NCBI GenBank assembly: GCA_965223905.1
Contig: CBDCXV010000001.1
Coordinates: forward strand, 416,001 to 480,000
DNA: 64,000 bases
Origin: Candidatus Latescibacterota bacterium
GTDB taxonomy: Bacteria; Latescibacterota; UBA2968; UBA8231
Reading direction: 5' to 3'
Position numbers and translations under genes: made by a program. The number at the start of each line of letters is the position of its first letter. The stretch's first letter is position 1. Positions 11,511 through 36,882 of this stretch are shown here, in pieces. Under the pieces are notes generated by a model, which saw only the letters and a list, made by a program, of their open reading frames with translations, had not been told where the DNA came from and did not search any database.

Positions 11511-11559
11511 CCACCGGAAAGCCGCCAGGCCGAACATTTACAGAAAGGGAGGCAGACGG

Positions 11560-12708: not shown

Positions 12709-12784
12709 CGAGGGTCCGGAAGCCGGGTGCGGGTTCCGAACCCCGGGGTCAACCCGTATTATTGACCTACCCTCCTGGCACCTC

Positions 12785-15025
12785 ATGGTTCTACTCCTTC
12801 TCGCAATCGTCCTCATCCCGATACCGGACCCTGCCGGGGCCGACGGCTGGCCCCACTGGAGGGGCCCCGGCCATAACGGCGCTTCCGGCGAGACCGGTCT
12901 GGTTTCGGCCTGGTCCCGATCCGGAAGCGGCCTGCTCTGGAGCGCCGACTTCAGCGGCCGCTCGACTCCCATCCTCATGAACGGCCGTGTCTACGTCATC
13001 GGCCGGGTCGGAGAGGGGATCACCGAGCAGGAGCGCATCGCCTGCTTCGACGCCGGCACCGGCGCCCTGCTCTGGGAGGACCGACTCAACGTCTTCCACA
13101 CCACGATCCCGTTCAACCGCGTCGGCTGGGCCAACCTCGCCGGCGATCCCGAGACCGGCAACGTCTACGCCCACGGGGTACAGGGGATCTTCAACTGCTA
13201 CTCCGGCCACGGCGAGCTGCTGTGGTCGCGGTCGCTGACCGAGGAGTTCGGCCGCATCTCCGGATACGGGGGCCGCACCCACACCCCGTTCGTCGACGGC
13301 GACCTCGTGGTGATCTCGTTCCTCAACTCGAGCTGGGGGAACCAGGCCGTGCCCCGGCACCGGTATTTCGCCTTCGACAAGAACGGCGGCGAGGTGGTGT
13401 GGGTGTCGACTCCGGGCGGGCGGCCCCTCGACACCACCTATTCGACCCCCGTGGCCGCCGATATCGGCGGGCAGCGGCTGATGATCGCCGGCAACGCCGA
13501 CGGGGCCGTTTACGCCCTGCGCGCGGCGACCGGAGAGAAGGTGTGGGGCTTCCGGCTCAGCAAGCGCGGCATCAACGTCTCCGTAGTAGCCGGCGGCGGC
13601 CGGGTCTACGTCTCCCACAGCGAGGAGAACGTCGACAACACCGAAATGGGCCGTGTCGTCTGCATCGACGCCACCGGCACGGGGGACGTGACCGGCACCG
13701 GGGAAATCTGGCGCCGCGACGCCTTTCTGGCCGGCTACGCCTCGCCCGCTCTCGACGACGGCAGGCTCTACGTCGTCGACAACTCCGCCAACCTGCTCTG
13801 CCTCGACGCCGGCGACGGGACCCTGCTCTGGGAGCGCAACATCGGCACCATCGGCAGGGGCTCCCCCGTGGTCGCCGGCGGCAAGATCTTCGTCGCCACC
13901 GTCAACGGCAGGTTCGAGATCCTGCAGCCGGGAGAGGGGGAGTGCCTGCTCCTCGACGAGGAGCTGCTGGCCGCGGAAGGGGGACGGCCGCTGGAGATCT
14001 ACGGCTCGCCGGCGGTCGCCTGGGGCTGCGTCTACTTCGCGACCGAAAACGGGCTGTTCTGCCTCGGCGATTCCTACCGCGGGCCTTCGACATCCGCACC
14101 CTCCGGCTCTTCGGCAGCGCCGCCGGGTGCCCCTGTTCCGGCGGATAACCCGCCTGCATCGATTCAGCTCGTTCCGGCGGAGGTTCTTCTCGCCCCGGGA
14201 GAGTCGGCGCGGTTCGCCGCCCGCCTCTTCGATGCCGCGGGCAGGCTGTTGTCGGATGCAGGCGCCGGCCCGCAGTCCGTGGACTGGAGCCTCGAAGAGC
14301 TGGCGGGGGAAGTCGAGGCGGAAGAAGCGGCAACGGCCCTTTTCACCGCGGTTCCCGAGGTTTCGCAGACCGGCCTCGTAAGCGCGAGCCTCCGTTTCGG
14401 GCCCGAGGAGAGGGCGGCCCTGGCCGCACTCGCCCGGGTGCGCGTGGCCGCGGAGCGCGGCTGGAGCGAAGACTTCGAGTCCCTGAGCGCGACCGAAGGG
14501 GAGAACGCCGCCCCCGCCCACTGGATCGGCTCGGCGCGCAAGTTCTTCGTCCGCGAGCTCGACGGCAGCAAGGTCCTGGCAAAACCTCTGGCAAAGCGCG
14601 GTCTGCAGCGTTCCAACGTCTACCTCGGCCCGCCGGGGATGTCGGGATACACCATCCAGGCGGACATGATGGCCGCCCGGGGCAAGCGCAACCGTCCCGA
14701 CATGGGGCTGATCGCCAACCGCTATACCCTCGACATGATGGGCAACCACCAGCGCCTGCAGATCCGCTCCTGGGCCTCCGACCTGCGCATGGCGAAAACC
14801 ATCGACTTCGAGTGGGAACCGGAGGTCTGGTACACCGTCAGGATGACCGTGGATGTCGAAGCGGACAGGGCGGTCGTCAAGGGCAAGGTCTGGCGCCGCG
14901 GCGAAGACGAGCCGCAGGACTGGACGATCGAAGCGGAGGACCCGCTGCCGAACCGCAACGGAAGTCCGGGGCTCTACGGGTACTCCGCCGCCGAGATTTT
15001 CTACGACAACGTCCGCGTTTGGTAG
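12785..15025 (+). CDS. Secreted PQQ-like beta-propeller protein with an additional C-terminal beta-sandwich region
   Basis: Hydrophobic N-terminus then WPHWRGP, with repeated xTP...A.D..TG..LW blades. Ig-like and lectin-like C-terminal segments are inferred. Confidence 0.85.
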   Translation: MVLLLLAIVLIPIPDPAGADGWPHWRGPGHNGASGETGLVSAWSRSGSGLLWSADFSGRSTPILMNGRVYVIGRVGEGITEQERIACFDAGTGALLWEDRLNVFHTTIPFNRVGWANLAGDPETGNVYAHGVQGIFNCYSGHGELLWSRSLTEEFGRISGYGGRTHTPFVDGDLVVISFLNSSWGNQAVPRHRYFAFDKNGGEVVWVSTPGGRPLDTTYSTPVAADIGGQRLMIAGNADGAVYALRAATGEKVWGFRLSKRGINVSVVAGGGRVYVSHSEENVDNTEMGRVVCIDATGTGDVTGTGEIWRRDAFLAGYASPALDDGRLYVVDNSANLLCLDAGDGTLLWERNIGTIGRGSPVVAGGKIFVATVNGRFEILQPGEGECLLLDEELLAAEGGRPLEIYGSPAVAWGCVYFATENGLFCLGDSYRGPSTSAPSGSSAAPPGAPVPADNPPASIQLVPAEVLLAPGESARFAARLFDAAGRLLSDAGAGPQSVDWSLEELAGEVEAEEAATALFTAVPEVSQTGLVSASLRFGPEERAALAALARVRVAAERGWSEDFESLSATEGENAAPAHWIGSARKFFVRELDGSKVLAKPLAKRGLQRSNVYLGPPGMSGYTIQADMMAARGKRNRPDMGLIANRYTLDMMGNHQRLQIRSWASDLRMAKTIDFEWEPEVWYTVRMTVDVEADRAVVKGKVWRRGEDEPQDWTIEAEDPLPNRNGSPGLYGYSAAEIFYDNVRVW

Positions 15026-15045
15026 CGGCACGGGGGGAAACAGGA

Positions 15046-16491
15046 ATGATGAAGGGTGTCTTCTCGAAGCCGCGACTCCGCGGTGCGGTCCTGGCCGCCA
15101 TGGCCGCAGCTGCGCCGGCCGCGGCTGCTGAAACCGCGATGTTCGGCTTCACCCCGGGACGCAACATGACTGTCGAGGCCAGTTCCCTGCCGGCCGGCTG
15201 GAACGTGGAGACCGGGGAGGGAATCCTGTGGACGGCGCAGCTCGGCTCCCAGACCTACGCCGGCCCCCTGATCCACGGGGGCAAGGTGTTCGTCGGCACC
15301 AACAACCAGGCGCTGTACAACGGGAAACTCACCGGCGACCGCGGCGTCATCGCCGCCTTCGCGCTGGGAGACGGCAGCTTCCTGTGGCAGTCGACGCACA
15401 CCAAGCTCCCTTCCGGGCGGGTCAACGACTGGCCGCAGCAGGGAGTCTGCTCGACCCCGTACGCCGAGGGGGAGCGCCTGTACTACATATCCAACCGCTG
15501 CGAGGTCGTCGCCGCGGACACCGAGGGGTTCCGCGACGGCGAGAACGACGGGCCCTACCGGGACGAGGCGGATTCCAGCGACATCGACGGGGACGTCGTG
15601 TGGAAGCTCGACATGATCGAGGAGCTCAACGTCTTCCCGCACAACCTGGCCGTCTGCTCTCCCGTGGCGGCCGGCGACCTGCTGTTCGTTATCACCGGCA
15701 ACGGCGTCGATGAAGGCCACGTCCACATCCCGTCGCCGTTCGCCCCCAGCTTCATCGCCGTCGACAAGAGAACGGGCGAGTTGGCCTGGGAGGACGCCTC
15801 CCCGGGGGAGAACATCCTCCACGGCCAGTGGTCGAACCCGGCTTACGGGGTCATCGCCGGCCGCCCCCAGGTGATCTTCTCCGGCGGCGACGGCTGGGTC
15901 TACGCCCTCGACCCGGCGACCGGCGCGCTGCTCTGGAAGTTCGACTGCAACCCCAAGGAATCGGTCTGGGAGCTGGGGGGCAGGGGGACGCGCAACGCCA
16001 TCATCTCGACCCCCGTCATCTACGGGAACCGCGTCATCATCGGCGTCGGCCAGGATCCCGAGCACGGCGAAGGGGTGGGCAACCTGTGGTGCATCGACGC
16101 CACCGGAAACGGCGACGTCACCGCGACCGCGGGGGTCTGGCACCTCGGGGGCAGGAGCTTTCACCGCACCATGTCGACGGCCGCCGTCGAAGGGGGCCTG
16201 GTGTACCTCGCCGACCTCAGCGGCTTCGTCTACTGCATCGACGCCGAGACCGGTGAGGTGCAGTGGAAGTACGACGCCTTCGCGGCGATCTGGGGGTCCG
16301 CCCTGGTCGCCGACGGCAAGGTCTACATCGGCGACGAGGACGGCGACGTGGCCATCCTCAAGACCGGGCGCGAGCTCGAGGTGATCGCCGAGATCAACAT
16401 GGGCAGCTCGGTGTACACCACCCCGGTCGCCGACTCCGGCATCCTCTACATAGCCAGCCGCAACCGCCTGTTCGCCATCGGTGCGCCGTAG
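15046..16491 (+). CDS. Secreted PQQ-like beta-propeller protein
   Basis: Ala-rich signal peptide and blades such as AVDKRTGELAW, ALDPATGALLW and CIDAETGEVQW. Confidence 0.87.
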   Translation: MMKGVFSKPRLRGAVLAAMAAAAPAAAAETAMFGFTPGRNMTVEASSLPAGWNVETGEGILWTAQLGSQTYAGPLIHGGKVFVGTNNQALYNGKLTGDRGVIAAFALGDGSFLWQSTHTKLPSGRVNDWPQQGVCSTPYAEGERLYYISNRCEVVAADTEGFRDGENDGPYRDEADSSDIDGDVVWKLDMIEELNVFPHNLAVCSPVAAGDLLFVITGNGVDEGHVHIPSPFAPSFIAVDKRTGELAWEDASPGENILHGQWSNPAYGVIAGRPQVIFSGGDGWVYALDPATGALLWKFDCNPKESVWELGGRGTRNAIISTPVIYGNRVIIGVGQDPEHGEGVGNLWCIDATGNGDVTATAGVWHLGGRSFHRTMSTAAVEGGLVYLADLSGFVYCIDAETGEVQWKYDAFAAIWGSALVADGKVYIGDEDGDVAILKTGRELEVIAEINMGSSVYTTPVADSGILYIASRNRLFAIGAP

Positions 16492-16501
16492 CCGTCCGGG
16501 G

Positions 16502-17605
16502 ATGAGCGCGACCCCGGCAGAAAACCCGCCCGCCTCCCTGGCCGCGAAGGCCGCCGCTGCCCGGGAGCGGCTCGACGCCCACGTGCGCGAGCTGGTGCGC
16601 TGGCATTTCGGCCCCGATACCGGGTGCCCCTTCTGGCTCCAGTTCGCCGGACAGCTCGACTTCGACCCCCGCACCGAGATCGGCGGCTACGATGACCTGA
16701 AGCTGCTCGGGCACTTCCGCGACGAGTGGCTGCGCGGCGGGCCGGTGCGCAGGTGGGTGCCCAAGGCGTACGCGAACGATCCCGTGTACGTGTTCGAGAC
16801 CGGCGGCTCGACCGGCCTTCCCAAGAACCGCATCAACATCCGCGACTTCGAGATCGACTACCGGCAGTTCGGCGAGCGCCTTTCCGAAGAGGGGTTCCCA
16901 CAGGGCGGCGACTGGCTGATGCTGGGACCGACGGGACCGCGGCGACTGCGCCTGGCGGTCGAGCGCCTGGCCCAGATGCGCGGCGGCATCTGCTTCTTCG
17001 TCGACCTCGACCCCCGCTGGGTCAACAACCTGATCCGCCGCCGGGCCCACCAGGAGCTCGAGGCCTACAAGAGCCACGTCGTCGACCAGGGGCTGAAGAT
17101 CCTGCGCGCCCACGACAGCGTCCGCTGCCTGTTCACGACCCCGAGGCTGCTCGAGGCGCTGTGCGAGAAGGTCTCGCTCCCAAGGGCCGGGATCACCGGG
17201 ATCTTCTGCGGCGGCACCGAGATGGACGCCCAGTTCCACCGCTTCGCCCGCGAGGAGCTCGTCCCCGGCATCGACTTCGTGCCGACCTACGGCAACACCC
17301 TGATGGGTTTGGCGCACTGCCGGCCCTTCGAGCCGGGGCTGGGATACGACATCATCTACCATCCGCCGCACCCGCGCGCCGTCATCGAGCTCGTGGACCG
17401 GGAAGACAGCAGCCGTACGGTCGCCTACGGGGAGACCGGGCGGGTGATGCTGACGACGCTCACGCGGGAGTTCTTCATGCCCCGCTTTCTCGAGCGCGAC
17501 GAGGGGGAGCGCGCCGAGCCGGTCGACGACTACCCGTGGGACGGGGTCGCCAACGTGCGCCTGCTGTCGTCGCTGCAGGAGTCCGTGACCGTAGGGGTGT
17601 ACTGA
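16502..17605 (+). CDS. EhpF/LuxE-like short adenylate-forming enzyme (ANL superfamily)
   Basis: WHFGPDTGCPFW, P-loop FETGGSTGLPK, GGT, PTYGNT and ERD. Lacks the usual ANL C-terminal domain. Confidence 0.72.
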   Translation: MSATPAENPPASLAAKAAAARERLDAHVRELVRWHFGPDTGCPFWLQFAGQLDFDPRTEIGGYDDLKLLGHFRDEWLRGGPVRRWVPKAYANDPVYVFETGGSTGLPKNRINIRDFEIDYRQFGERLSEEGFPQGGDWLMLGPTGPRRLRLAVERLAQMRGGICFFVDLDPRWVNNLIRRRAHQELEAYKSHVVDQGLKILRAHDSVRCLFTTPRLLEALCEKVSLPRAGITGIFCGGTEMDAQFHRFAREELVPGIDFVPTYGNTLMGLAHCRPFEPGLGYDIIYHPPHPRAVIELVDREDSSRTVAYGETGRVMLTTLTREFFMPRFLERDEGERAEPVDDYPWDGVANVRLLSSLQESVTVGVY

Positions 17606-17610
17606 CCGCC

Positions 17611-19047
17611 ATGGCCGCACCCTGCCACATCCCGATTCTCAGACAGGGAGAGCCGTACCGCAGCCTGCGCCTGGAAACCCTGCGGCACACAGCCGGGGGC
17701 GAGCCGGTCGCCGAGGTCTCCCAGGCCAACGCCGGCCTCATGGCGCGCGATCTGTCGCGGGCCCACCTCGCGCAGCAGCAGCTGGCAGCGCTGCCGGCGG
17801 AAGAGCTGCTGCGGATCTGCCGCCGCGCCGGCGAGCTGTTCGCCTCCGCCGACCTGCCGCTCGGGGAGCAGGCGCAGCCCTTCGACACCTACGTCGCGCA
17901 GCTGTCGGCCACCACCGGACTGCCCCGGACCCTGTGCCGCAGCAATGCCGCCAAGATCGCCTCCGCCCTCGGACAGATGGCCGAGATCGTCGGCGGACTG
18001 ACGCGCGGCGCCGGGCTCGATATCATCGACAGCGGCTGGGGGGAGCAGGGCGCCCGCCCGCTCAGCTACCGGCGCCTGGCCGACGCTCTCGGAGCGGTGC
18101 TGCCCAACAATTCCCCCGGGGTGCACACCCTGTGGCTGCCTGCGCCGGCTCTGAAGATTCCGGTGGCGCTGAAGCCGGGCAGCAGGGAGCCGTGGACTCC
18201 CTTCCGCATCGCCCAGGCCTTCATCGCCGCCGGCTGTCCCCCGGCCGGCTTCAGCCTCTATCCCGGCGGCCACGACATCGCCGGGGAGCTGCTGCTCCGC
18301 TGCGGCCGCTCGCTGCTGTTCGGGGGAGAGGAGACGGTCGCCCCCTGGGCCGGCGACCCCCGCGTCGAGATACACGGCCCTGGGTGCAGCAAGATCCTGT
18401 TCGGCAGCGATGCCGCCGGCGACTGGGAAAGGCATCTGCCGCTGCTGCTCTCCTCGGTCGCCGACAACGGCGGCCGCTCCTGTATCAATGCCTCCGGGGT
18501 GTGGGTTCCCGCCCGGGGGCGCGAGATCGCCGAGGCCCTGGCCCGGCGCCTGTCCGAGATCGAGCCGCTTCCCCTCGACCACCCCGAGGCCGCCCTCGCC
18601 GCCTTCCCGGACCCGGACGCGGCCCGGCGGATTTCCGACTTCATCGATCAGAGGCTGGAAACTCCCGGGGCCGCCGACCTGACCGCGGCGGTTCGGGCAA
18701 ACGGCCGCGTCGCCACCGCCGGCGGGTGCACCTTCCTGCGCCCGACGGTGATCTGGTGCGAGGATCCGGAGCACCCGCTCGCCGACACCGAGTTCCTGTT
18801 CCCGTTCGTCGCCGTGGTCGAGGCTCCCGCGGAAGAGATGGCGGAACGGATCGGCCCTTCCCTCGTCGTCACCGCCGTGACCGAAGACGCGACGCTACGG
18901 GCGCAGCTGATGGGCTCTTCCAGGATCGACCGCCTCAACTTCGGGGAGGTGCCGACGAACGAGATCTCCTGGGACCAGCCGCACGAGGGAAACCTGTTCG
19001 AGCTGCTCTACAGGCAGCGGGCCTTCACCATGAGGCGGCGCGCCTGA
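17611..19047 (+). CDS. Aldehyde dehydrogenase-fold protein (EhpG/LuxC-like acyl reductase candidate)
   Basis: VLPNNSPG, LKPG, FGG, HGPG and a catalytic Cys in NGGRSCINAS, plus EFLFP. Confidence 0.8.
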   Translation: MAAPCHIPILRQGEPYRSLRLETLRHTAGGEPVAEVSQANAGLMARDLSRAHLAQQQLAALPAEELLRICRRAGELFASADLPLGEQAQPFDTYVAQLSATTGLPRTLCRSNAAKIASALGQMAEIVGGLTRGAGLDIIDSGWGEQGARPLSYRRLADALGAVLPNNSPGVHTLWLPAPALKIPVALKPGSREPWTPFRIAQAFIAAGCPPAGFSLYPGGHDIAGELLLRCGRSLLFGGEETVAPWAGDPRVEIHGPGCSKILFGSDAAGDWERHLPLLLSSVADNGGRSCINASGVWVPARGREIAEALARRLSEIEPLPLDHPEAALAAFPDPDAARRISDFIDQRLETPGAADLTAAVRANGRVATAGGCTFLRPTVIWCEDPEHPLADTEFLFPFVAVVEAPAEEMAERIGPSLVVTAVTEDATLRAQLMGSSRIDRLNFGEVPTNEISWDQPHEGNLFELLYRQRAFTMRRRA

Positions 19048-20183
19048 TGCAGGGGTTCGAGTACGAGAGCGTAACCCGCCTGGTGTTCGGCACCGGGGCC
19101 CTGGCCAGGCTCGGCGGTCTGGCCGCAGAGCTCGGGGCCGGGCAGGTGCTGGTGGTCACCGACCCCGGCATCGCCGCCGCCGGCATCCTCGACAGGGCGA
19201 CCGAATCCCTCGCCGCGGCCGGATTGCAATACGCCGTCTTCGACGGGGTCGAGAAGAATCCTGGCAGCCGCCACGTCGAGACCGGGCGCCGCTTCGCCGA
19301 GGAGCTGCCGCGGCCGGCCGACTTCGTCGTCGCTCTTGGCGGCGGCAGCGCCATGGACTGCGCCAAGGGAATCAACTTCCTGCTGACCAACGGCGGCCGC
19401 ATCGAGGAGTACCGCGGCGACGGCAAGGCGAAAAAACCGCTGCTCCCGGCCATCGGCGTCCCGACTACCGCGGGGACCGGCAGCGAGGCCCAGCGCTTCG
19501 CCCTGATCGGGGAAGCGGAGAGCCGCATGAAGATGGCCATCGGCGACCGCACCGCCCGCTTCCGCGTCGCCCTGCTCGATCCCGAGCTGACCGCGACGGC
19601 TCCGCGAGAGGTGGCCGCGGCCGCGGCGGCCGACGCCATTTCGCACGCCGTGGAGAGCTTCGCCAGCGCCAACGGCAATGAGGTCTCGCGGATGTTCGCA
19701 GGCCGCGCGCTGCAGCTTCTGGCGGCCAACCTGCGCGAAAGCCTGCGCGCCGGCTCGGTCGCGGCGCGCGCCGGCATGCTGCTCGGAGCCCACTGGGCCG
19801 GGGCCGCCATCGAGAACTCGATGCTGGGGGCCGCCCACGCCTGCGCCAACCCCCTGACGGCCCGCTACGGGATCACCCACGGAGTGGCGGTCGGGGTGAT
19901 GCTGCCGCACGTGATCCGCTTCAACGGCGCCGCGGTCGACGGAAGCTACACCGAGCTTGCAAGAGCGGCCGGTCTGGAGGGGGCGGGGGCGGAGGCCCTG
20001 GCGGAGTGCGTGCGCTGCTGGAACGCCGAGGCGGACCTGCCTGAACGCCTGCGCGATCTCGACGTCGAAGCGGCCTCCCTGCCGGGCCTCGCGCGCGAGG
20101 CCGCGGCGCAGAGAACGGCGCGCTTCAATCCCCGGCCCGCTGGAGAGCGGGAGCTCGCGGGCCTGTACGAGGCGGCCTTCTGA
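19047..20183 (+). CDS. Iron-containing alcohol dehydrogenase
   Basis: GGGSAMDCAK, PTTAGTGSE, DAISHAVES, AAHACANPL and HG. Start overlaps the upstream stop (TGATG). Confidence 0.93.
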   Translation: MQGFEYESVTRLVFGTGALARLGGLAAELGAGQVLVVTDPGIAAAGILDRATESLAAAGLQYAVFDGVEKNPGSRHVETGRRFAEELPRPADFVVALGGGSAMDCAKGINFLLTNGGRIEEYRGDGKAKKPLLPAIGVPTTAGTGSEAQRFALIGEAESRMKMAIGDRTARFRVALLDPELTATAPREVAAAAAADAISHAVESFASANGNEVSRMFAGRALQLLAANLRESLRAGSVAARAGMLLGAHWAGAAIENSMLGAAHACANPLTARYGITHGVAVGVMLPHVIRFNGAAVDGSYTELARAAGLEGAGAEALAECVRCWNAEADLPERLRDLDVEAASLPGLAREAAAQRTARFNPRPAGERELAGLYEAAF

Positions 20184-24742: not shown

Positions 24743-24764
24743 GAGCAGCGGCCCCGGCGGCAGG

Positions 24765-27294: not shown

Positions 27295-27317
27295 CCCGGT
27301 CGTCCAAGTTTGGCGTT

Positions 27318-27648: not shown

Positions 27649-27653
27649 CCGAT

Positions 27654-28728: not shown

Positions 28729-28841
28729 TCCAGGGGCAATCTACCTGAATGATGACCGCCGAGGGCATTCTGACGCCCAAGCTCATCTTGCACTGTAAAG
28801 CGCCGTAACGACATCCCCCCAACCTGGCCTTTTCATCCTCC

Positions 28842-29069
28842 GTGCGCGCCATCCTATACATCCTCCTTCTTCTCCTCTACGCCCTCCACAACGACCTCTG
28901 GCTGTGGGACGACGGCACCCTGGTGCTCGGCCTGCCCCCCGGGTTCCTCTATCACATCGGCTACTGCGTCGCAGCCGCCGGTCTCCTGGTCCTGCTCGTC
29001 AACTTCGCCTGGCCCCGGCACCTGTCCGAACCTGAGGGCGGGGAAGAGCCGGAGGACTCGCGGCCATGA
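28842..29069 (+). CDS. Small membrane protein (DUF3311-like), SSS transporter partner
   Basis: Two hydrophobic segments and HNDLWLW...LGLP. ATGA overlap with the SSS gene. Confidence 0.8.
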   Translation: MRAILYILLLLLYALHNDLWLWDDGTLVLGLPPGFLYHIGYCVAAAGLLVLLVNFAWPRHLSEPEGGEEPEDSRP

Positions 29070-30538: not shown

Positions 30539-30575
30539 GGACCGGGCCGGGCCGCGTGGCTTTTCTCGTTCCCCC

Positions 30576-31907
30576 ATGCGCGTAGGCTACATCACCGCCG
30601 GGGCCGCGGGCATGTACTGCGGCGCCTGCATCCACGACAACACCCTTGCCGCGGCGCTGATGCGCCGGGGGGTCGAGGTCGCCCTGGTGCCGACCTACAC
30701 CCCGCTGCGCACCGACGAGGCGGACGTCAGCCTGAAGCAGGTGTTCTACGGCGGCATCGGGGTCTATCTCGAGCAGAAGCTGCCGCCGTTCCGGCGCATG
30801 CCCCGGTTCGTCGACTGGGCCCTCAGGCGTCCCGCCCTGCTGAAGGGGGTGTCGCGGTTCTCCGCGGCGACGCGGGCCGAGGACCTCGGGGCCCTCACCG
30901 TGTCCGTGCTCAAGGGACCGGAGGGCCATCAGCGACGCGAGCTCGAACGGCTCGTCGAGTGGCTGCGCACCGATTTCAGGCCCGATATCGTGCTGCTCAC
31001 CAACAGCCTCTTCCTCGGCCTGGCGGGGAGGCTGAAGAGCGCCCTCGGGGTACCGGTGCTGTGCGCGGTGCAGGGGGAGGAGATCTTCCTCGAGGCGCTC
31101 GTCGAGCCGTACCGCTCCCAGGTCCTCGGCCTGCTGCGCGAGCGAGCCGGCGACGCCGACGGTTTCGTCGCCCCCAGCACATACGCCGCCGACTTGATGG
31201 CGCAGTATCTCCAGGTCGAGCGCGACCGCTTCCGCGTGGTGCCCCTCGGGCTGCACCTCCCCGGACACGGCGAAGGCGACGCCGCGGCGCCCCCTTCCGC
31301 GGAGGCGCCGTTCACCATCGGGTTCCTGGCGCGGATCTGCCCGGAGAAGGGGCTGCACCTGCTCGCCGAGGCGTTCGCGCTCCTCGCCGAAGAGAGAGGT
31401 GCGGAGTCGGTGAGGCTGCTGGCTGCCGGTTGGCTCGGCGCCGGCGACCGCCCCTACCTGAGGGAGGTCGAGGAAACCCTGCGGCGGGCCGGACTCGCGG
31501 CGCGCTTCGAGTACCGGGGGAAGCTGGATCGGACGCAGAAGATCCGTTTCTTACGGGAGCTCCACGTGCTCTCGGTGCCGGCCCCCTTCAAGGAGCCGAA
31601 GGGGCTCTACGTCCTCGAGGCGCTGGCCAACGGCGTGCCGGTCGTCCAGCCCGATCACGGCGCCTTCCCGGAGCTGATCGCGGCAACAGGCGGCGGCCTT
31701 CTCGCCGCCGGGGCCACGGCGGAAGCGGTCGCGGCCGGCATCGGGCAGCTGGTCGACGACGAGGCCCTGCGGCAGCGCCTGGCCGCCCGCGGCAGAGAGG
31801 CGGTTCGCGAGCGCTTCAACGACGGCGTCATGGCCGCCGAGACCCACGCCCTGTTCGAGCGCTTCGTTCCATCCCGCCCGTCCACCCGCAAAGAGGAAAT
31901 CCCATGA
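30576..31907 (+). CDS. Glycosyltransferase family 4 with an N-terminal CxxC
   Basis: ARICPEKG and EPKGLYVLEALANGVPVV. The N-terminus carries GMYCGACIHDN. Confidence 0.9.
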   Translation: MRVGYITAGAAGMYCGACIHDNTLAAALMRRGVEVALVPTYTPLRTDEADVSLKQVFYGGIGVYLEQKLPPFRRMPRFVDWALRRPALLKGVSRFSAATRAEDLGALTVSVLKGPEGHQRRELERLVEWLRTDFRPDIVLLTNSLFLGLAGRLKSALGVPVLCAVQGEEIFLEALVEPYRSQVLGLLRERAGDADGFVAPSTYAADLMAQYLQVERDRFRVVPLGLHLPGHGEGDAAAPPSAEAPFTIGFLARICPEKGLHLLAEAFALLAEERGAESVRLLAAGWLGAGDRPYLREVEETLRRAGLAARFEYRGKLDRTQKIRFLRELHVLSVPAPFKEPKGLYVLEALANGVPVVQPDHGAFPELIAATGGGLLAAGATAEAVAAGIGQLVDDEALRQRLAARGREAVRERFNDGVMAAETHALFERFVPSRPSTRKEEIP

Positions 31908-32374
31908 CCTGGTTGCTGTTCGCCTTCATCACCGTGGCCTCCTGGGGGCTGTACGGAGTCCTCCTGCACAGCGGACAGACGGCGATGGCCGATCCCGTCA
32001 ACGGGCGCTACAAGGCGTTCCTTTTCGTCGGCGTCGCCTATCTCCTGACCGCCGTCCTCGGTTCGCTGCTGGTGCTCAAGATCAACGGCGTCGACTGGGG
32101 CTTCCCGGTCAAGGGGGTCGTCTTGTCGACTGTAGCAGGAACCGCCGGCGCCATCGGGGCCTTCGGGGTACTGCTCGCCTTCGGGGCCAAGGGATCGCCG
32201 GCCGTGGTGATGGCGATCGTCTTCGCCGGGGCCCCGGTCGTCAACGCCGTCGCCGCGATGATCTTGCACCCGCCCGCGGCCGGCCTCGGCGCGCTCAGCT
32301 GGCCGTTCCTGCTCGGGATCGCCATGGCCGCAGGCGGCGGTTGCCTGGTCACCCTGTTCAGGCCGGGGTCGTAG
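31904..32374 (+). CDS. Small multi-pass membrane protein (EamA/DMT half-like)
   Basis: About five hydrophobic helices. AGAGGA ribosome-binding site and ATGA overlap with the GT4 gene. Confidence 0.8.
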   Translation: MTWLLFAFITVASWGLYGVLLHSGQTAMADPVNGRYKAFLFVGVAYLLTAVLGSLLVLKINGVDWGFPVKGVVLSTVAGTAGAIGAFGVLLAFGAKGSPAVVMAIVFAGAPVVNAVAAMILHPPAAGLGALSWPFLLGIAMAAGGGCLVTLFRPGS

Positions 32375-32381
32375 GCAGGCC

Positions 32382-32804
32382 GTGGCCTCGGAGTTTCGCA
32401 CCCGGCGCCGCATCGAGTTCGAGGACACCGACGCGGCCGGCATCGTCCACTTCTCCCGTTTCCACGTGTTCATGGAGCAGGCCGAGCACGCCTTCCTGCG
32501 TTCCCTCGGCCTCAGCGTGCACATGCATTTCGAAGGCGACCTGGTGAGCTGGCCGCGAATGGCCTCCTCCTGCGAGTTCTACGCCGCGGCGAGGTTCGAG
32601 GAGGTCGTCGACATCCACCTGCGAGTGGCGCGCATGGGTCCCCGGTCGGTGACCTACGCCTGCGATTTCTGGAAGGGGGAGGAGAAGCTGGCGAGCGGCG
32701 AAATCTCTTCGGCCTGCTGCATCTGCAACCCTGGCGAGCCGATGCGGTCGATCGAGATCCCGGCCCTCATCGCCGCGCGGCTCGACGAGGCGCCGCCGCG
32801 GTGA
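32382..32804 (+). CDS. Acyl-CoA thioesterase (4HBT/YbgC hot-dog fold)
   Basis: FEDTDAAGIVHFSRF...EQAE. Confidence 0.9.
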   Translation: MASEFRTRRRIEFEDTDAAGIVHFSRFHVFMEQAEHAFLRSLGLSVHMHFEGDLVSWPRMASSCEFYAAARFEEVVDIHLRVARMGPRSVTYACDFWKGEEKLASGEISSACCICNPGEPMRSIEIPALIAARLDEAPPR

Positions 32805-33517
32805 GCGGCGACCGCGATCCCCATGGCGCCTCCCGGGCCGGGGGTTTCCGGCTCGAGGTCCGCGGCCTGCGCAAACAGTTCGAGCAGGGCGGGCAGTCGC
32901 TGCGCGTCCTCGACGGGATCGACCTCGAGTTGGAGGCGGGCCAGTCGCTGGCGGTTACCGGCCCCTCCGGCTCGGGAAAGAGCACCCTTCTGCACATTCT
33001 CGGGACCCTCGACGAGCCGACCGGCGGGGCCGTGGAGATCGGCGGCCGCAACCCCTTCGCCCTGGCCGAACCGGAGCTGGCGCGGTTCCGCAACAAGGTG
33101 ATCGGCTTCGTCTTCCAGGACCACCACCTGCTGCCGCAGTACTCCGCCCTGGAGAACGTGCTGATTCCCGCGCTGGCCTTCGGCAGGCCGGACGCCGTCA
33201 GACAGCGGCGGGCGCGCGAGCTGCTCGAGCGCGTCGGCCTCGGCGAGCGGGCAGGGCACCGCCGCGCCGCCCTGTCGGGCGGGGAGTGCCAGCGGGTAGC
33301 GGTCGCCAGGGCGCTGATAAACGCCCCGCGCCTGCTGCTGTGTGACGAGCCGACAGGCAACCTCGACCGCGCCGCCGCCGGTTCGGTTGCCGACCTGTTG
33401 TTCGCGCTGCACCGGGAGGAGGGGAACATCCTGGTAGTGGTGACGCACAGCGAAGAGCTGGCCGCCCGCTGTGAACGGCGCATCGAGCTGATCCACGGGC
33501 GATGCGCCGAACGCTGA
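32801..33517 (+). CDS. ABC transporter ATP-binding protein (LolD/MacB-like)
   Basis: GPSGSGKST, LSGGECQRVA, DEPTGNLD and VTH. Confidence 0.94.
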   Translation: MSGDRDPHGASRAGGFRLEVRGLRKQFEQGGQSLRVLDGIDLELEAGQSLAVTGPSGSGKSTLLHILGTLDEPTGGAVEIGGRNPFALAEPELARFRNKVIGFVFQDHHLLPQYSALENVLIPALAFGRPDAVRQRRARELLERVGLGERAGHRRAALSGGECQRVAVARALINAPRLLLCDEPTGNLDRAAAGSVADLLFALHREEGNILVVVTHSEELAARCERRIELIHGRCAER

Positions 33518-36500
33518 CGCATTTCTGGAAGATCAACGTCGCGGTCGCCCTCGGCGCCGCGGTGGCGACCGCGGTGCTGACCGGGGCCCTCCTGGTCGGC
33601 GATTCGGTGCGCGCCAGCCTCCGCTCCCTCGTCCTCGACCGCCTCGGATCCGTCGACTGCGCCCTCGTGGCGCCCCGGTTTTTCCGCGGTGGGCTCGCCA
33701 CCTCCCTGTCGATCGACGACGAGAGCGGCGCAGGTGCCGGGGTGGCGCCCGTCATCCTCCTCGAGGGGGCTGCCACCCACGCCCGCTCCCGGGCACGCGC
33801 CCCGGTGCAGATCCTCGGGGTCGACGACCGCTTCAGCGCTTTTTTCGGCGATAATGGCGGGCTCCCCGCGATGCACAGGCAGGGCCCGTTCCCGCCGGCG
33901 ATACTGAACGAGCGGCTGGCCGCAGAGCTCGGTGCCGCTGCCGGCGACGCGGTGCTGCTGGCGCTGCCGCGGCGTGCCGAGGTGCCGCGCGCGACGGTGT
34001 TCGGGCGCCGCGACTCCGAGGACGTGGTGCAGACCCTGCGGGTGGTGGTCGCCGCGATCATTCCGGACCGCGGACCCGGCGGCTTCGGGCTGCATCCTCA
34101 CCAGGCGGCGCCGCACAACGTCTATCTCGACCTCGGCGACCTGCAACGGGAGCTCGGTCTTCCCGGAAGGGCGAACGCGCTGCTGGCCAGGTACCCGGGG
34201 GTTTCGGGCACTATCGCCTCCGCCGCCCTGCAACGGGATTTGCAAGCGGCCCTGGGCCTGACCGACCTCGGCCTGGTCCTGCGGGAGCTGCCGGGCCGCG
34301 GCCTCTTCGCCCTCGAGAGCGAGCAGTTCATCCTCGGCGACGCGCGCGCCGGCCTGGCCGCCGCGGCCGCATCCGGGCTCGGCATTCCCCGGCTGCCGCT
34401 CTTCACCTACCTCGCCAACAGTCTGTCCGCGGGCGAGCGCTCGCTGCCGTACTCGACAGTCTCCGCCCTCGGCGAGGGCGCTTTCGGCGGCGGTTTCGGT
34501 GAGATGCTTCTGGCCGGCGGCGGGCGGTTGCCGCCACTGCGGGAAGGGGAGATCGCCCTCAACGAGTGGGCGGCCGCGGACCTCGCCGTTGTCGTAGGGG
34601 ATTCCCTGCGCCTGGAGTACTTCGTCGTCGACGAGGGGGAGCAGCTGTCGGAAAGGTCCGCCCGCCTGCGGGTCGCCGGCGTTCTGCAGATGCGCGGCCT
34701 TGCCGCGGACCCGGGGCTGACCCCCCGCTATCCCGGCATTCAGGACGCCCGCGACATGTCGGCGTGGTCGCCGCCGTTCCCCCTCGACCTCGACCGCATC
34801 CGCCCCCGGGACGAGGCGTACTGGGACGAGTACGGGGCGGCGCCCAAAGCGTTCGTCTCCGAGGGGACCGGAAAAAAGCTCTGGGGCAGCCGCCACGGCA
34901 GCCTCACCGCCCTGAGACTCGGCGCCAGGCCGGGGGAGCCCCCGGCGGCTGCGGCCGCGGCCTTCGAGCGCGCCTATCTCGCCGCGGTGCAACCGCAGCG
35001 GTTGGGGATGAGCTTCATCCCGGTGCGGGAGCGCAGCCTGAAGGCCGCAGACGGGGCCACCGATTTCGGCGGGCTCTTCATCGGCTTCAGCCTGTTCCTG
35101 ATCGCCGCCGCGGCGATGCTGATGGGACTCCTGTTCCGCCTCGGGGTCGAGCAGCGGGTGCGGGAGATGGGGCTTCTGCGCGCTCTGGGCATGCCGCTGC
35201 GGCGCGTGCGCCGCCGGTTTCTCGGCGAAGGTCTGGCGGTCGCCGCCCTCGGTGGGCTGCTCGGAACCGCCGCCGCCGTCGCCTACGCCGGGATGATGAT
35301 GGCCGGGCTGCGCACCTTGTGGCGCGAGGCCGTCGGAACGGCGCACCTGTCCCTGACCGTCACCCCCGCCACCCTGGCCATCGGCTACGCCGCCTCGCTC
35401 ATCGTCGCCGCCGCGGTCGTCGCCTGGACGGTGAGGACCCTCGGCCGCCTGGCGCCCCGCGCCCTGCTGGCAGGCGAACCCTCCCGCCCTTCCACGCGCC
35501 GCGGAAAAGGTGCGTTACTGTTCGCCGCCGGGGCCGCCCTCGCCGCGGGCGCCCTGTCCGCAGCCGGGTCGCTGGTCTCCGCGGCGACGGCCAGCGTCCT
35601 CTTCTTCGCCAGCGGGGCGCTGCTCCTCGCCGCCGGGGTGGCCGGGTTTGCGAGCTGGCTGAGAACCGGAGGGGGCCCTGCATCCGGACTGCCGCCGACG
35701 ACCCTCGGGCTGGCGGTCACATCCACGCGGCGTCAGCCGGGACGCAGCCTGCTGGCTGCCGGCCTGGTGGCCTGCGCCTGTTTCGCGATCACTGCGGTGG
35801 CGGCCAACCGCCGCGCCGGCCTGCCGGACGCAGCCGCACTGGAGAGGGACTCCGGCACCGGCGGCTACGCCGTGAGGGCGAAAGCCGACATCCCCGTGTT
35901 TACGGATCTCAACGAAGACGACGGGCTGATCGAAGAGGGGTTCACTCCGGAAGAGCGAGCCATGCTCGGCGGCTCCCGCATCTTCCGCCTGCGCGGCTCC
36001 CCCGGAGAGGACGTGAGCTGCCTCAACCTCTACAAACCGGCGCGGCCTACCCTGCTCGGCCTGCCTGCCGGCTTCATCGAACGCGGCGGTTTCCGGTTCG
36101 CGGAGGCCGCTCCGGAAGCCGGGTCCAACCCCTGGGAGCTGCTCACCGAAGAGCTGGAACCCGGAGTGGTGCCGGCGATCGGCGACTACAACTCCGTGCG
36201 CTGGATCCTCCATTCCGGCCTCGGGGAGGAGATCCTGCTTGCGGACGAGAGTGGCGGCGAGCTGAGACTGCGCCTGGTCGGGCTGCTCCAGGGCAGCATT
36301 TTCCAGAGCGAGATCCTGGTATCGGAGGAGCAGTTCAAGCGCCACTTCCCGGGCGCCGAAGGCTACCGCTACTTCCTGGTCGAGGGGGGACAGCAGGAGC
36401 CGGCCTTGACCGCCGCCCTGCTCGAACGGCGCATGGAGACGTACGGACTCGAGGCGACGGCAACTCCATCCCTGCTTGCGCGCTTCGGGGCGGTCGAGAA

Positions 36501-36882
36501 CACCTACCTGTCGACCTTCCAGACCTTGGGCGGGTTCGGGCTGTTGCTGGGAACCGTCGGGCTGGCCCTGGTGCTGCTGCGCAACGCCATCGAGCGCAGC
36601 GGCGAGCTGGCCGCATGGCGCGCCTGCGGGTTCAGCCGCGCGCGCCTGCGGAGCATCCTGGTGCTGGAGAATGCGTTTCTGCTGCTGGCCGGCGCCGCAA
36701 TCGGAACGGTTGCCGCCCTGGTCGCCGTGGCCCCTCACCTGGCCGTGCACTTGAGCGGCATTCCCTGGGGATCGCTGGCGGCGACGCTGGCAGCGGTGCT
36801 GGGGTTCGGGGTTTGCGCCGCAGCGGCCGCCTCGGGGTTCGTCCTGCGCCAGCCGCTGCTCCCGGCCTTGAGAAGGGAGTAG
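33502..36882 (+). CDS. FtsX-like ABC permease with two fused modules and large periplasmic domains
   Basis: Two FtsX signatures, EQRVREMGLLRALG and ERSGELAAWRACG, each with transmembrane clusters. Confidence 0.9.
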   Translation: MRRTLTHFWKINVAVALGAAVATAVLTGALLVGDSVRASLRSLVLDRLGSVDCALVAPRFFRGGLATSLSIDDESGAGAGVAPVILLEGAATHARSRARAPVQILGVDDRFSAFFGDNGGLPAMHRQGPFPPAILNERLAAELGAAAGDAVLLALPRRAEVPRATVFGRRDSEDVVQTLRVVVAAIIPDRGPGGFGLHPHQAAPHNVYLDLGDLQRELGLPGRANALLARYPGVSGTIASAALQRDLQAALGLTDLGLVLRELPGRGLFALESEQFILGDARAGLAAAAASGLGIPRLPLFTYLANSLSAGERSLPYSTVSALGEGAFGGGFGEMLLAGGGRLPPLREGEIALNEWAAADLAVVVGDSLRLEYFVVDEGEQLSERSARLRVAGVLQMRGLAADPGLTPRYPGIQDARDMSAWSPPFPLDLDRIRPRDEAYWDEYGAAPKAFVSEGTGKKLWGSRHGSLTALRLGARPGEPPAAAAAAFERAYLAAVQPQRLGMSFIPVRERSLKAADGATDFGGLFIGFSLFLIAAAAMLMGLLFRLGVEQRVREMGLLRALGMPLRRVRRRFLGEGLAVAALGGLLGTAAAVAYAGMMMAGLRTLWREAVGTAHLSLTVTPATLAIGYAASLIVAAAVVAWTVRTLGRLAPRALLAGEPSRPSTRRGKGALLFAAGAALAAGALSAAGSLVSAATASVLFFASGALLLAAGVAGFASWLRTGGGPASGLPPTTLGLAVTSTRRQPGRSLLAAGLVACACFAITAVAANRRAGLPDAAALERDSGTGGYAVRAKADIPVFTDLNEDDGLIEEGFTPEERAMLGGSRIFRLRGSPGEDVSCLNLYKPARPTLLGLPAGFIERGGFRFAEAAPEAGSNPWELLTEELEPGVVPAIGDYNSVRWILHSGLGEEILLADESGGELRLRLVGLLQGSIFQSEILVSEEQFKRHFPGAEGYRYFLVEGGQQEPALTAALLERRMETYGLEATATPSLLARFGAVENTYLSTFQTLGGFGLLLGTVGLALVLLRNAIERSGELAAWRACGFSRARLRSILVLENAFLLLAGAAIGTVAALVAVAPHLAVHLSGIPWGSLAATLAAVLGFGVCAAAAASGFVLRQPLLPALRRE

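Follow-up and report, generated by a model that had tools for sequence, protein, structure and literature searches.

A 17-gene operon conserved across phyla joins predicted aromatic-acid chemistry to exported beta-propellers in Candidatus Latescibacterota

A conserved operon of 17 genes

We analyzed a stretch of 64,000 nt (hereafter the window) from a Candidatus Latescibacterota genome (GenBank assembly GCA_965223905.1, contig CBDCXV010000001.1, positions 416,001 to 480,000), focusing on the gene array at 12785-36882. This array is a genuine multi-phylum operon and one functional unit, with its two halves linked across phyla. An earlier reading of the letters alone (the sequence-only reading) had proposed such a unit, and tblastn over genome and metagenome loci bears this out: the same gene order is found in Latescibacterota, Acidobacteriota, Gemmatimonadota, Planctomycetota and metagenome loci. 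Because synteny is conserved across phyla, the array is far more than a chance juxtaposition. As for its function, the case is evenly balanced for a working model in which a chorismate-derived acid is turned into a modified aromatic alcohol glycoside, which is exported to propeller proteins in the envelope.

Every gene of the array lies on the + strand, as judged from a plot of G+C at third codon positions (GC3) and the list of open reading frames (ORFs). The window is ∼68% G+C, and the codon-position plot places all genes from 10.1 to 39.5 kb on that strand. Seventeen genes were called from the ORF list and in-frame start codons. Neighboring genes overlap by 1-17 nt or lie 5-37 nt apart, except on either side of a lower-GC stretch of 1547 nt at 27295-28841. 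These coordinates agree with the earlier description of about 17 co-oriented, overlapping or nearly abutting genes. Families were assigned by Pfam and NCBIfam searches (equivalog denotes a curated NCBIfam cut-off), and each family named in that description was matched. The genes are given below with the evidence for each and the junction to the next.

12785-15025, + strand: g01 (prop1), exported 746-aa protein with an N-terminal PQQ_2 (BamB-like) propeller and a C-terminal domain of ∼310 aa (PQQ_2, 116.6 bits); gap of 20 nt
15046-16491, + strand: g02 (prop2), exported 481-aa PQQ_2 propeller (93.2 bits); overlap of 11 nt
16481-17605, + strand: g03, EhpF-like adenylating enzyme with the ANL N-terminal domain only (EhpF, E 7.8e-44); gap of 5 nt
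17611-19047, + strand: g04, aldehyde dehydrogenase (ALDH)-fold protein, predicted reductase partner with an EhpG/GriD-like role (Aldedh, 53.7 bits); overlap of 1 nt
19047-20183, + strand: g05, iron-containing alcohol dehydrogenase (Fe-ADH, 155.9 bits; ADH_Fe_C, 119.3 bits); overlap of 1 nt
20183-21316, + strand: g06 (prop3), probable lipoprotein, eight-bladed BamB/YxaL-like propeller (PQQ_2 and predicted fold); overlap of 4 nt
21313-22665, + strand: g07, HemN-like radical S-adenosylmethionine (SAM) enzyme (Radical_SAM, 74.4 bits; HemN_C, 31.6 bits); overlap of 17 nt
22649-24742, + strand: g08, TonB-dependent receptor (TBDR) of the siderophore-receptor class (plug and barrel domains); gap of 22 nt
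24765-26030, + strand: g09, PaaK-like aryl/acyl-CoA (or AMP) ligase (AMP-binding_C_2); overlap of 8 nt
26023-27294, + strand: g10, probable flavin-dependent halogenase of the PltA type, Trp_halogenase family (PDB matches and motifs)
27295-28841, no strand: low-GC insert with two ORFs, 27654-28151 and 28120-28728 (GC, Pfam)
28842-29069, + strand: g13, DUF3311 small membrane partner of the symporter (28.8 bits versus a cut-off of 30; two predicted transmembrane segments); overlap of 4 nt
29066-30538, + strand: g14, sodium:solute symporter (SSS; SSF, 140.2 bits); gap of 37 nt
30576-31907, + strand: g15, GT4 glycosyltransferase (Glycos_transf_1, 83.2 bits; Glyco_transf_4, 52 bits); overlap of 4 nt
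31904-32374, + strand: g16, 156-aa half-size membrane protein (∼5 transmembrane segments), EamA/drug-metabolite transporter (DMT)-like (language-model similarity); gap of 7 nt
32382-32804, + strand: g17, hotdog thioesterase of the 4HBT/YbgC type (4HBT, 34.9 bits); overlap of 4 nt
32801-33517, + strand: g18, LolD/MacB-type ABC ATPase (LolD TIGR02211, 243.9 bits); overlap of 16 nt
33502-36882, + strand: g19, 1126-aa permease with two FtsX domains and two large periplasmic domains (two FtsX stretches)

No NCBIfam equivalog cut-off was reached by any of 20 proteins, the 17 of the operon included. As had been claimed, the 17 proteins gave no match to polyketide synthase (PKS), nonribosomal peptide synthetase (NRPS), terpene cyclase, phz or pqq families at the thresholds used. 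More broadly, no canonical core of a biosynthetic gene cluster (BGC) was found among them—whether PKS, NRPS, terpene, ribosomally synthesized and post-translationally modified peptide (RiPP) or NRPS-independent siderophore (NIS)—and no precursor peptide. Ring-cleavage and beta-oxidation genes were likewise absent from the 17 by Pfam and NCBIfam. Rfam gave no family at the gathering threshold anywhere in the window, hence no riboswitch clue. A promoter and terminator scan of 12000-31999 was uninformative, with 3 promoter-like sites (0.9 expected) and 8 terminator-like sites (8.7 expected).

Conservation and prevalence

A search with the radical SAM protein, restricted to one genome per species, returned nine genome loci, six of them longer than 13 kb. 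They come from a Latescibacterota metagenome-assembled genome (MAG; 96% identity), three Thermoanaerobaculia, another member of the Acidobacteriota, a Gemmatimonadetes, a Planctomycetaceae, an Isosphaeraceae and an unclassified MAG. Gene order was read by tblastn with all window proteins. The common order in the first half is prop1, prop2, EhpF-like, ALDH, Fe-ADH, prop3, radical SAM, (fourth propeller), TBDR, (PaaK) and halogenase; in the second it is DUF3311, SSS, GT4, (membrane protein, thioesterase), LolD and FtsX. Wherever the upstream side is visible (L003, L006, L007 and L009), the cluster begins with prop1, and the two halves abut without an insert in L003, L057, L061, L066 and L122. 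Window proteins share 45-75% identity with their orthologues in the genome loci. By family, the values are 47-60% for prop1 (in the four loci with a visible upstream side), 59-71% for prop2 and 60-78% for the symporter, and, across phyla, 57-74% for the EhpF-like enzyme, 50-67% for the radical SAM enzyme and 58-76% for the g16 membrane protein. DUF3311 is kept beside the SSS gene, and FtsX permease orthologues are present in L005, L006 and L122.

Metagenomes were scanned with an alignment of seven radical SAM orthologues. At least 575 relatives were found among the stretches scanned, and 80 loci were kept, giving 89 with the nine from genomes. These loci were chosen by radical SAM similarity and are not independent; a gene was scored only where the locus had enough flank. 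On this basis, prop3 was found in 42/63 loci, upstream of the radical SAM gene, followed by Fe-ADH (28/48), ALDH (18/38), the EhpF-like gene (18/35), prop2 (15/33) and prop1 (14/30). Corresponding counts were 22/63 for the fourth propeller, 18/41 for the TBDR, 23/33 for the halogenase, 9/33 for PaaK, 10/28 for SSS, 14/27 for GT4, 11/27 for the thioesterase and 12/27 for LolD. Three layouts recur: that of the window; a planctomycete-like one, with a GcvH-like and then a ferredoxin-like gene after the radical SAM gene; and a short one consisting of radical SAM, lyase-like, halogenase, thioesterase and PaaK genes.

Several of these data count against our working model. In L073, L086, L093, L101 and L102, radical SAM orthologues that are equally similar to ours have no other operon genes within 10 kb, and some of these orthologues adjoin GcvH-like and ferredoxin-like genes; the role of this enzyme may therefore be broader. 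No halogenase occurs within at least 6.5 kb downstream of the radical SAM gene in 10 of 33 loci. PaaK is confined to the 9 of 33 loci counted above while the thioesterase persists without it, so a sub-scheme of ligase, halogenase and thioesterase cannot be general.

Two variants of the locus deserve description. In planctomycete-like loci (L081, L086, L093, L099, L104, L113 and others; positions ∼11300-13400 of the 21-kb loci), the radical SAM gene is followed by the GcvH-like gene and one for a 4Fe-4S ferredoxin-like protein of ∼350 aa. These GcvH-like proteins keep the lysine in an ET.KA motif, and a squalene-hopene cyclase gene often lies a few genes on. L086 and L093 have this trio without the rest of the operon. 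In L006 (10001-11306; genome G172), the radical SAM match is split into residues 13-89 and 91-450, and EhpF-like and ALDH genes are missing from the locus; the window query detected no EhpF-like gene in the rest of G172 either. The L006 copy may be decaying.

By its marker genes the operon is common. The radical SAM orthologue occurs once per genome in 98 of 168 genomes of the window's phylum (E ≤ 1e-60, 59-96% identity), with family counts of 48/75, 20/22, 28/31 and 1/3 and none in the remaining ten families (0/36). An EhpF-like orthologue (E ≤ 1e-80) was detected in about a quarter of sampled Acidobacteriota genomes (79/301, including G324 and G221, two genomes marked unpublished; the phylum of L003) and in about a fifth of sampled Planctomycetota genomes (57/301; the phylum of L004). 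In both phyla, several of the hits are in genomes that consist of a single contig. Sequencing runs were also sampled for words of the window. Nineteen DNA-type runs from seven studies hold 22-94% of these words; the share is 13-14% in two RNA libraries labelled as sponge metagenome, both from a single study. At 95-100% identity and a depth of 2-6, contigs from the RNA libraries map to 21 of the 30 bins into which 12785-32784 was divided; bins without contigs carry no information. DNA carry-over is possible, and the contigs show presence in RNA libraries, not proof of transcription.

A predicted two-protein carboxylate reductase

The EhpF-like enzyme and the ALDH-fold protein very probably constitute a two-protein carboxylate reductase, to judge from homology, motifs and a predicted complex. 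The only relative of g03 (374 aa) in the PDB is EhpF (3l2k/3hgu, E 7.8e-44), with residues 30-364 of the query (335 of 374) aligned to residues 19-355 of 366 in EhpF. The C-terminal (A10) domain of ANL enzymes is absent, and the Pfam AMP-binding match is partial. The P-loop, TGG.TG.PK, is invariant in 15 sequences, and mean column identity in the family is 70%. Thus, g03 has the make-up of a stand-alone ANL enzyme, with N-terminal domain and P-loop and no A10 domain. Aligned with KauB, g04 keeps catalytic Cys291, oxyanion Asn167, NAD(P)-binding Lys188 and Glu394, all conserved in 14-15 sequences. The position of the glutamate that acts as general base in hydrolysis is instead an invariant histidine, His255, which departs from the pattern of oxidative ALDHs. 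This histidine would fit a reductase that must not hydrolyze its acyl-enzyme.

The two genes are adjacent, an arrangement conserved across loci, and their products are predicted to form a complex. With both family alignments as input, the interaction prediction score from aligned errors (ipSAE) was 0.75 (median of three runs), versus 0.00 for the best of three controls; 58 of 80 solved complexes attain this mark, as do 2 of 110 mismatched pairs. At least 75% of contacts recur between runs, and the partner has a predicted local distance difference test score (pLDDT) of at least 90. The predicted interface involves residues 18-20 and 38-49 of g04, a conserved N-terminal segment specific to the family. 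These models support binding between g03 and g04. We know of no solved complex of this kind.

The pairs EhpF/EhpG and GriC/GriD convert aromatic carboxylates into aldehydes, and we take EhpF to act on an aromatic dicarboxylate. The former pair belongs to the pathway of the phenazine D-alanylgriseoluteic acid in Pantoea agglomerans, the latter to that of grixazone. The likeness consists in a short ANL enzyme that lacks the C-terminal domain and has a partner of the ALDH family; since the partner here was compared with ordinary ALDHs only, its likeness to EhpG and GriD rests on role. The context differs, as the genes for phenazine and for 3-amino-4-hydroxybenzoic acid (3,4-AHBA) are absent from the operon. 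The Fe-ADH, g05, reached no NCBIfam equivalog cut-off.

Candidate ring-modifying enzymes

The flavoenzyme g10 is probably a true halogenase on the strength of its conserved residues. Its PDB matches include 8zop (212.9 bits), PltA (188 bits) and 3e1t (181 bits). K73 aligns with a lysine of PltA and of 3e1t, which we take to be the catalytic K73 and K76, respectively; WFWYIP corresponds to WxWxIP and GGGPAG to GxGxxG. All 30 family members retain K73, W218, W220, I222 and P223, the residues expected of a halogenase. The best structural-sequence relatives are phenol and pyrrole halogenases (PltA, 3e1t, 5buk and 5bva; 164-213 bits), which have the catalytic lysine and WxWxIP in common with g10; the last three are presumably CndH, Mpy16 and Bmp2. 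Matches to the hydroxylating maturases QhpG, LodB and GoxB (133.6, 99.4 and 81.7 bits) all lie below cut-off and, because K73 and WxWxIP are invariant, do not outweigh this signature. PltA and similar enzymes depend on a carrier or thioester, yet the 17 proteins include no carrier protein by Pfam and NCBIfam. At a guess, a CoA thioester made by the PaaK-like ligase is the substrate, although many loci lack PaaK.

That ligase, g09, scores 235 and 213 bits with PaaK models, below cut-off, and 148 bits with FlxY. The thioesterase, g17, matches YbgC and FadM models below cut-off and has D17 and H23 invariant in nine sequences. The operon is similar in content to aryl-polyene, xanthomonadin and flexirubin clusters, which combine an aryl acid head group and its ligase (compare the FlxY score of g09) with halogenase, thioesterase and glycosyltransferase genes and with a Lol-like or MMPL route to the outer membrane. 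Yet the operon lacks the ketosynthase, acyl carrier protein (ACP) and chain-extension genes of those clusters, which are not known to have the carboxylate reductase, the propellers or the TBDR.

The radical SAM enzyme, g07, has C69, C73 and C76 invariant and no fourth cysteine, and combines CxxxCxxC with HemN_C. Its scores fall short of every cut-off: HemN (173.5 versus 324.95 bits), ChuW/HutW (179.1 versus 400), HemW (149.3 versus 205.4) and STM4012 (169.1 versus 380). On these scores g07 is assigned to a separate HemN-like subfamily. C-methylation is a candidate for its reaction, though one that we hold with more doubt than confidence.

Origin of the acid

The sequence-only reading had the acid imported. 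Synthesis from chorismate is the better reading, because a predicted enzyme with the chorismate-lyase fold belongs to the system in several lineages, this one included; its gene lies in the cluster in genomes G162 and G101 and in 12 metagenome or genome loci. The acid, of the 4-hydroxybenzoate type, is thus probably made and not only imported, with import via the TBDR or SSS possible as a supplement. A hydroxybenzoate-type acid as the actual substrate is somewhat favored.

Two families are involved. The first, of ∼190 aa, is seen in the short and planctomycete-like layouts and is encoded directly after the radical SAM gene or elsewhere within the cluster in 12 loci (12 members); tblastn finds it in 15 loci. 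An AlphaFold2 (AF2) model from a 12-row alignment (pLDDT 92.1) has as its best match 2nwi, a DUF98 protein of Archaeoglobus (E 4.9e-8, TM score 0.63/0.75), and also matches chorismate lyase of Escherichia coli, 1fw9 (E 8.5e-5). Between the two rank GntR-type effector domains, which have the same fold. The family profile finds 2nwi by sequence as well (E 7.5e-5).

The second family is represented in this genome. At 93.6% completeness, the assembly has no match to the 190-aa family and none to UbiC (PF04345, which did match in the E. coli control). It does have one gene of PF01947, the Rv2949c-like chorismate pyruvate-lyases, on contig 9 (39.1 and 36.2 bits versus a cut-off of 22). Counted from the ATG where codon bias begins, this gene encodes 192 aa, and it ends 13 nt before the gene for a propeller. 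That propeller is the orthologue of prop4, the fourth propeller of the system, which is missing from the window cluster; it shows mostly 43-54% identity to full-length members, with E values down to 1e-135. The pair lies at 764035-765878 of contig 9 (10036-11878 of L121), unlinked to the cluster, and in this genome the lyase-like gene is relocated with the fourth propeller. Within the same taxonomic family, a PF01947-type gene occurs in 12 of 76 genomes. That of G162 belongs to a complete cluster, where the TBDR and PaaK genes flank it; in G101 its neighbors are the TBDR and prop4 genes, and in G105 and G103 it is paired with prop4. A lyase-fold gene is also present in three of five carriers from other phyla (G169, G170 and G171), that of G171 matching both queries.

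Not all of the evidence favors this origin. Pfam matched 0 of 12 members of the 190-aa family, and the two lyase-like families are weakly related (hhalign E 0.0011, probability 20%). The genome's own copy is unlinked to the cluster, and neither query finds a lyase-fold gene in the acidobacterial carriers G168 and G172.

Such gaps bear on another account, in which the locus serves uptake and conversion. The TBDR and DUF3311/SSS would bring in an aromatic acid, the enzymes would detoxify or salvage it, the exporter would remove the end product, and the propellers would be periplasmic partners in uptake. In its favor, window-type clusters conserve both the TBDR and SSS genes, and no lyase-like gene was found in G168 and G172. 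It is also in line with the 28 loci that have at least 8.5 kb downstream: 8 have the 190-aa lyase only, 13 an importer (TBDR or SSS) only, 7 neither and none both. Yet this apparent exclusion follows taxonomy, because the PF01947 gene directly adjoins the TBDR gene in G162 and G101, and L068 combines the 190-aa gene with DUF3311/SSS. These cases also led us to drop 'import replaces synthesis' as a general rule. Moreover, GT4, the halogenase and a Lol/MacB-type exporter are atypical of catabolism, and the 17 proteins include none for ring cleavage or beta-oxidation. We consider an uptake locus quite unlikely.

Synthesis of a hydroxybenzoate has parallels beside halogenase genes. The accessible part of a preprint (bioRxiv 10.1101/723874) describes adjacent chorismate-lyase-like and flavin halogenase genes, baaA and baaB, in a planctomycete (Planctomycetales strain 10988) and links them, without a mutant, to 3,5-dibromo-p-anisic acid. 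There BaaA/BaaB, like Bmp6/Bmp5 of Pseudoalteromonas, have the lyase-like gene beside the halogenase gene and no core synthase, and the product is a halogenated 4-hydroxybenzoate derivative. Metagenome loci with radical SAM, lyase-like and halogenase genes in a row resemble this arrangement. The BaaA/BaaB model, as set out in that part, involves two genes only; a reductase, GT4, propellers and an exporter are not part of it.

Glycosylation, transport and the envelope

The GT4 protein, g15, has an N-terminal Cys-x-x-Cys followed by Asp (C15..C18..D21) that is invariant in 11 orthologues and, to our knowledge, unusual for GT4 enzymes. Pfam gives no match for g16; the nearest Atlas clusters are annotated 'putative EamA domain-containing protein' (score 0.97). 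The symporter g14 reached no equivalog cut-off. The ATPase g18 scores 243.9 bits with LolD TIGR02211 (cut-off 307.75) and 224.6 bits with YbbA, and the permease g19 has ∼10 transmembrane segments and two large periplasmic domains without a Pfam match. Together, g18 and g19 have the components of a MacB/Lol-type (type VII) ABC system: a LolD/MacB-like ATPase and an FtsX permease with a periplasmic domain. They are like the MacB, LolCDE and YbbAP systems in the LolD/YbbA-like ATPase and the two FtsX domains, but the operon encodes no membrane-fusion or outer-membrane factor partner.

The TBDR, g08, scores 219 bits with TIGR01783, almost at the siderophore-receptor cut-off of 223.5. Its nearest solved relatives (5fok, 5nec and Fiu; ∼100 bits) are catecholate-siderophore receptors, which counts against our model in that they fit uptake at least as well as export. 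In a metallophore cycle, a phenolate- or catecholate-like chelator would leave by MacB-type export and the metal complex would re-enter through the TBDR; the receptor's score and relatives agree with this, and MacB-type pumps export pyoverdine. Yet the planctomycete-type loci L004 and L005 keep the enzymes without a TBDR, and the receptor is present in less than half of the scorable loci (18/41). The flavoenzyme has the motifs of a halogenase, not a hydroxylase, NIS and NRPS genes are missing, and turning a carboxylate into an alcohol would remove a ligand group. A metallophore is therefore distinctly improbable.

The exporter varies among loci. L004 has genes for MlaE, an ABC ATPase and MlaD at 10426-13415, after the radical SAM and GcvH-like genes and in place of LolD/FtsX, and L073 has an MMPL protein near its radical SAM gene. 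Because three kinds of lipid-type transporters occupy this position, we suggest that the cargo may be hydrophobic and envelope-bound. This would also suit a fatty-acid route, with Lux-like activation and reduction to a fatty alcohol, conversion to a glycolipid and DevA/DevC-like export as for heterocyst glycolipids. The progression from acid through aldehyde and alcohol to glycoside, with Lol/Dev-type export, fits such a route, as do the Mla- and MMPL-type lipid transporters of the variants. Neither LuxC nor LuxE gives a Pfam match, however, and the sole solved relative of the adenylating enzyme presumably acts on an aromatic dicarboxylate. The lyase-fold gene, PaaK-like ligase and phenol/pyrrole-type halogenase also point to an aromatic substrate, and we give little credence to a fatty acid.

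The propellers

The exported propellers resemble BamB and YxaL rather than PQQ dehydrogenases, according to profile scores and a predicted fold. Read by eye, the N-termini of prop1, prop2 and prop3 are hydrophobic and signal-like, with a lipobox-like LVAC in prop3. An AF2 model of prop3 from 25 sequences (pLDDT 93.4) is an eight-bladed propeller. In Foldseek it matches BamB (TM score 0.72-0.85) and YxaL (0.82-0.85), as well as tetrathionate hydrolase and designed propellers; no PQQ dehydrogenase is among the matches listed. Against the quinoprotein dehydrogenase model TIGR03075, the propellers score 26-70 bits (cut-off 480), well outside that family. The BamB equivalog TIGR03300 gives 60-151 bits (cut-off 285), so that, similar as the eight-bladed fold of prop3 is, all scores lie far below BamB membership. 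The proposal that the propellers use the product as a redox cofactor gains no support from this fold. A search of the window genome for pqqC (TIGR02111) was uninformative, as it gave no match there or in the control genomes.

In prop3, 15 columns are invariant; 13 of these are Gly, Trp or Pro, and the others are Cys204 and Asp205. More polar residues are kept in prop1 and prop2 (40 and 19, respectively, at ≥95% conservation). For the C-terminal part of prop1, Pfam gave no match, and its Atlas neighbors are unnamed clusters of Planctomycetota and Verrucomicrobiota. The system's fourth propeller is the one encoded on contig 9. A prop3 orthologue in L040 (2159-3322) has SRRQLL at its N-terminus, resembling a twin-arginine export signal. 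Any specific role that we might assign to the propellers would probably be wrong.

One such role is that of a substrate for maturation: the radical SAM enzyme and flavoenzyme would modify a propeller residue ahead of its export, in the manner of QhpD and QhpG with quinohemoprotein amine dehydrogenase, and the ABC system would export the matured protein. The flavoenzyme's scores with QhpG, LodB and GoxB are in keeping with this, below cut-off as they are, and we take the mix of propeller, radical SAM enzyme, flavoprotein and ABC exporter to resemble the qhp operon. Against it stand the stronger halogenase matches (177-213 bits), the invariant Lys and WxWxIP, a radical SAM enzyme that is HemN-like and not SPASM, and the near-restriction of invariant prop3 columns to Gly, Trp and Pro. 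The carboxylate reductase, GT4 and lyase-like gene would be left without a role. A maturation system of this sort is very improbable.

Halogenases co-localized with beta-propeller enzymes are known from CylC/CylK and BrtJ/BrtB, where, in the accessible part of the source (PMC7081238), the propeller enzyme forms C-C or C-O bonds at the halogenated carbon. The propellers CylK and BrtB are NHL-repeat, Ca-binding, cytoplasmic proteins that act on alkyl halides, whereas those of the operon are of the PQQ_2/BamB type and exported, and its halogenase is of the aromatic-ring type.

A working model of the pathway

In our model, the chorismate-lyase-fold enzyme would supply a hydroxybenzoate-type acid from chorismate, which uptake may supplement. 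The PltA-type flavin halogenase would then halogenate the ring, possibly acting on a thioester that the PaaK-like ligase forms and the 4HBT-type thioesterase releases. The HemN-like radical SAM enzyme would modify the ring further; our guess is C-methylation, as by class C radical SAM methylases. For the reduction, which homology, motifs and the predicted complex support, the EhpF-like enzyme would adenylate the carboxylate, the ALDH-fold protein would take the acyl group on Cys291 and yield the aldehyde, and the Fe-ADH would turn this into a benzyl-type alcohol. GT4 would glycosylate the alcohol, and the half-DMT protein and LolD/double-FtsX ABC system would move the product out of the cytoplasmic membrane. 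Thereafter, the three propellers encoded here, the fourth encoded elsewhere and the TBDR may bind, carry or process it in the periplasm or outer membrane.

The sequence-only reading had outlined activation, reduction, tailoring, glycosylation and export. This logic is supported by the enzyme families and their intact catalytic motifs; what calls for revision in that scheme is import as the source of the acid, given the lyase-fold gene, and use as a redox cofactor, which the BamB-like propellers do not support.

A more ambitious version of the model, to be put forward only as speculation and unlikely as it stands, is that the operon encodes an undescribed, widespread envelope pathway and not one for an ordinary secondary metabolite. 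A halogenated hydroxybenzyl alcohol glycoside would be handed by the Lol/MacB-type machine to the four BamB-like propellers; by analogy with CylC/CylK, these might be enzymes or carriers that couple the product to an outer-envelope structure or insert it there, the halogen serving as a leaving or activating group. Fitting observations are the single copy in 20/22 and 28/31 genomes of two families, the 50-75% identity across phyla and the replacement of the exporter by Mla- and MMPL-type transporters.

Relation to described gene clusters

Literature searches found no paper that characterizes this operon or a pathway with this content, as had been claimed. The closest description is a survey by Loureiro et al. 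(bioRxiv 10.64898/2026.08.03.742642). According to the accessible part of that preprint, sponge metagenomes hold 840 'Halo_AMP' clusters, defined by Trp_halogenase plus AMP-binding, whose gene cluster families (GCFs) fall in the Acidobacteriota (16%) and Latescibacterota (9%), among others. A PQQ-like domain is present at high frequency, along with TonB transporters and radical SAM, glycosyltransferase, thioesterase and toxin-antitoxin genes. The same part reports that no GCF includes a reference BGC from MIBiG and that no complete MIBiG BGC is alike. Our operon resembles these clusters in host phyla and in its PQQ-like, TonB, radical SAM, glycosyltransferase and thioesterase content, and the two sponge-metagenome RNA libraries hold contigs nearly identical to the window. 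It differs in that the survey, so far as accessible, is computational and aimed at brominated peptidic alkaloids, with no product linked, and the family described in detail, CC A, has P450s, which are absent here. New in the present work are the relocated pair of lyase and fourth-propeller genes, the lyase gene within the cluster of relatives, the His-for-Glu replacement in the reductase, the predicted reductase complex and the prevalence figures.

Because it has no core synthase, the operon is invisible to standard genome-mining rules. Aromatic chemistry of the cytoplasm is combined in it with four exported propellers, an outer-membrane receptor and an ABC system of the Lol type; we have not found this combination described as a pathway. 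With the product identified, ∼17 gene families could be given functions in phyla where genetics is almost lacking, and it could be tested whether small molecules are handled by the BamB-like 'PQQ-repeat' propellers that abound there. For in vitro work, the link to chorismate and the predicted reductase complex provide concrete starting substrates.

Neighboring genes and the low-GC insert

The genes that flank the operon were left out of the unit. An ABC-2 type transporter, made up of one ATPase and a pair of ABC2_membrane_6 permeases, is encoded at 36931-39505, 48 nt after the operon, and was not found after the FtsX gene in L122 or L005. It and the upstream enolase-superfamily and amidase genes recur, where visible, only in L001, the 96%-identical locus. 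Upstream, at 4944-9011, are a penicillin-amidase family gene and a cyclopropane-fatty-acid-synthase-like methyltransferase gene, with no link to the operon seen. An 829-aa ORF with strong codon bias (GC3 0.90) and no Pfam match at E ≤ 1e-5 occupies 53351-55840 on the - strand.

The insert at 27295-28841 has a GC content of 0.5-0.6, without clear frame bias. Its ORF at 27654-28151 is weakly PIN-like (E 4e-4, below the Pfam cut-off), and the overlapping 202-aa ORF at 28120-28728 has no family. Neither was found in the more distant carriers, and the insert lies outside the conserved system; it looks like a small insertion of the toxin-antitoxin type. That two or three unrelated operons came by chance to lie side by side, split at this gap, is scarcely credible: the 1.5 kb of foreign composition does separate the halves here, but they abut in the five loci named above, and the sequence of genes is the same across phyla. 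A propeller gene stands at the position of the insert in L122, between the halogenase and DUF3311 genes, and in G162.

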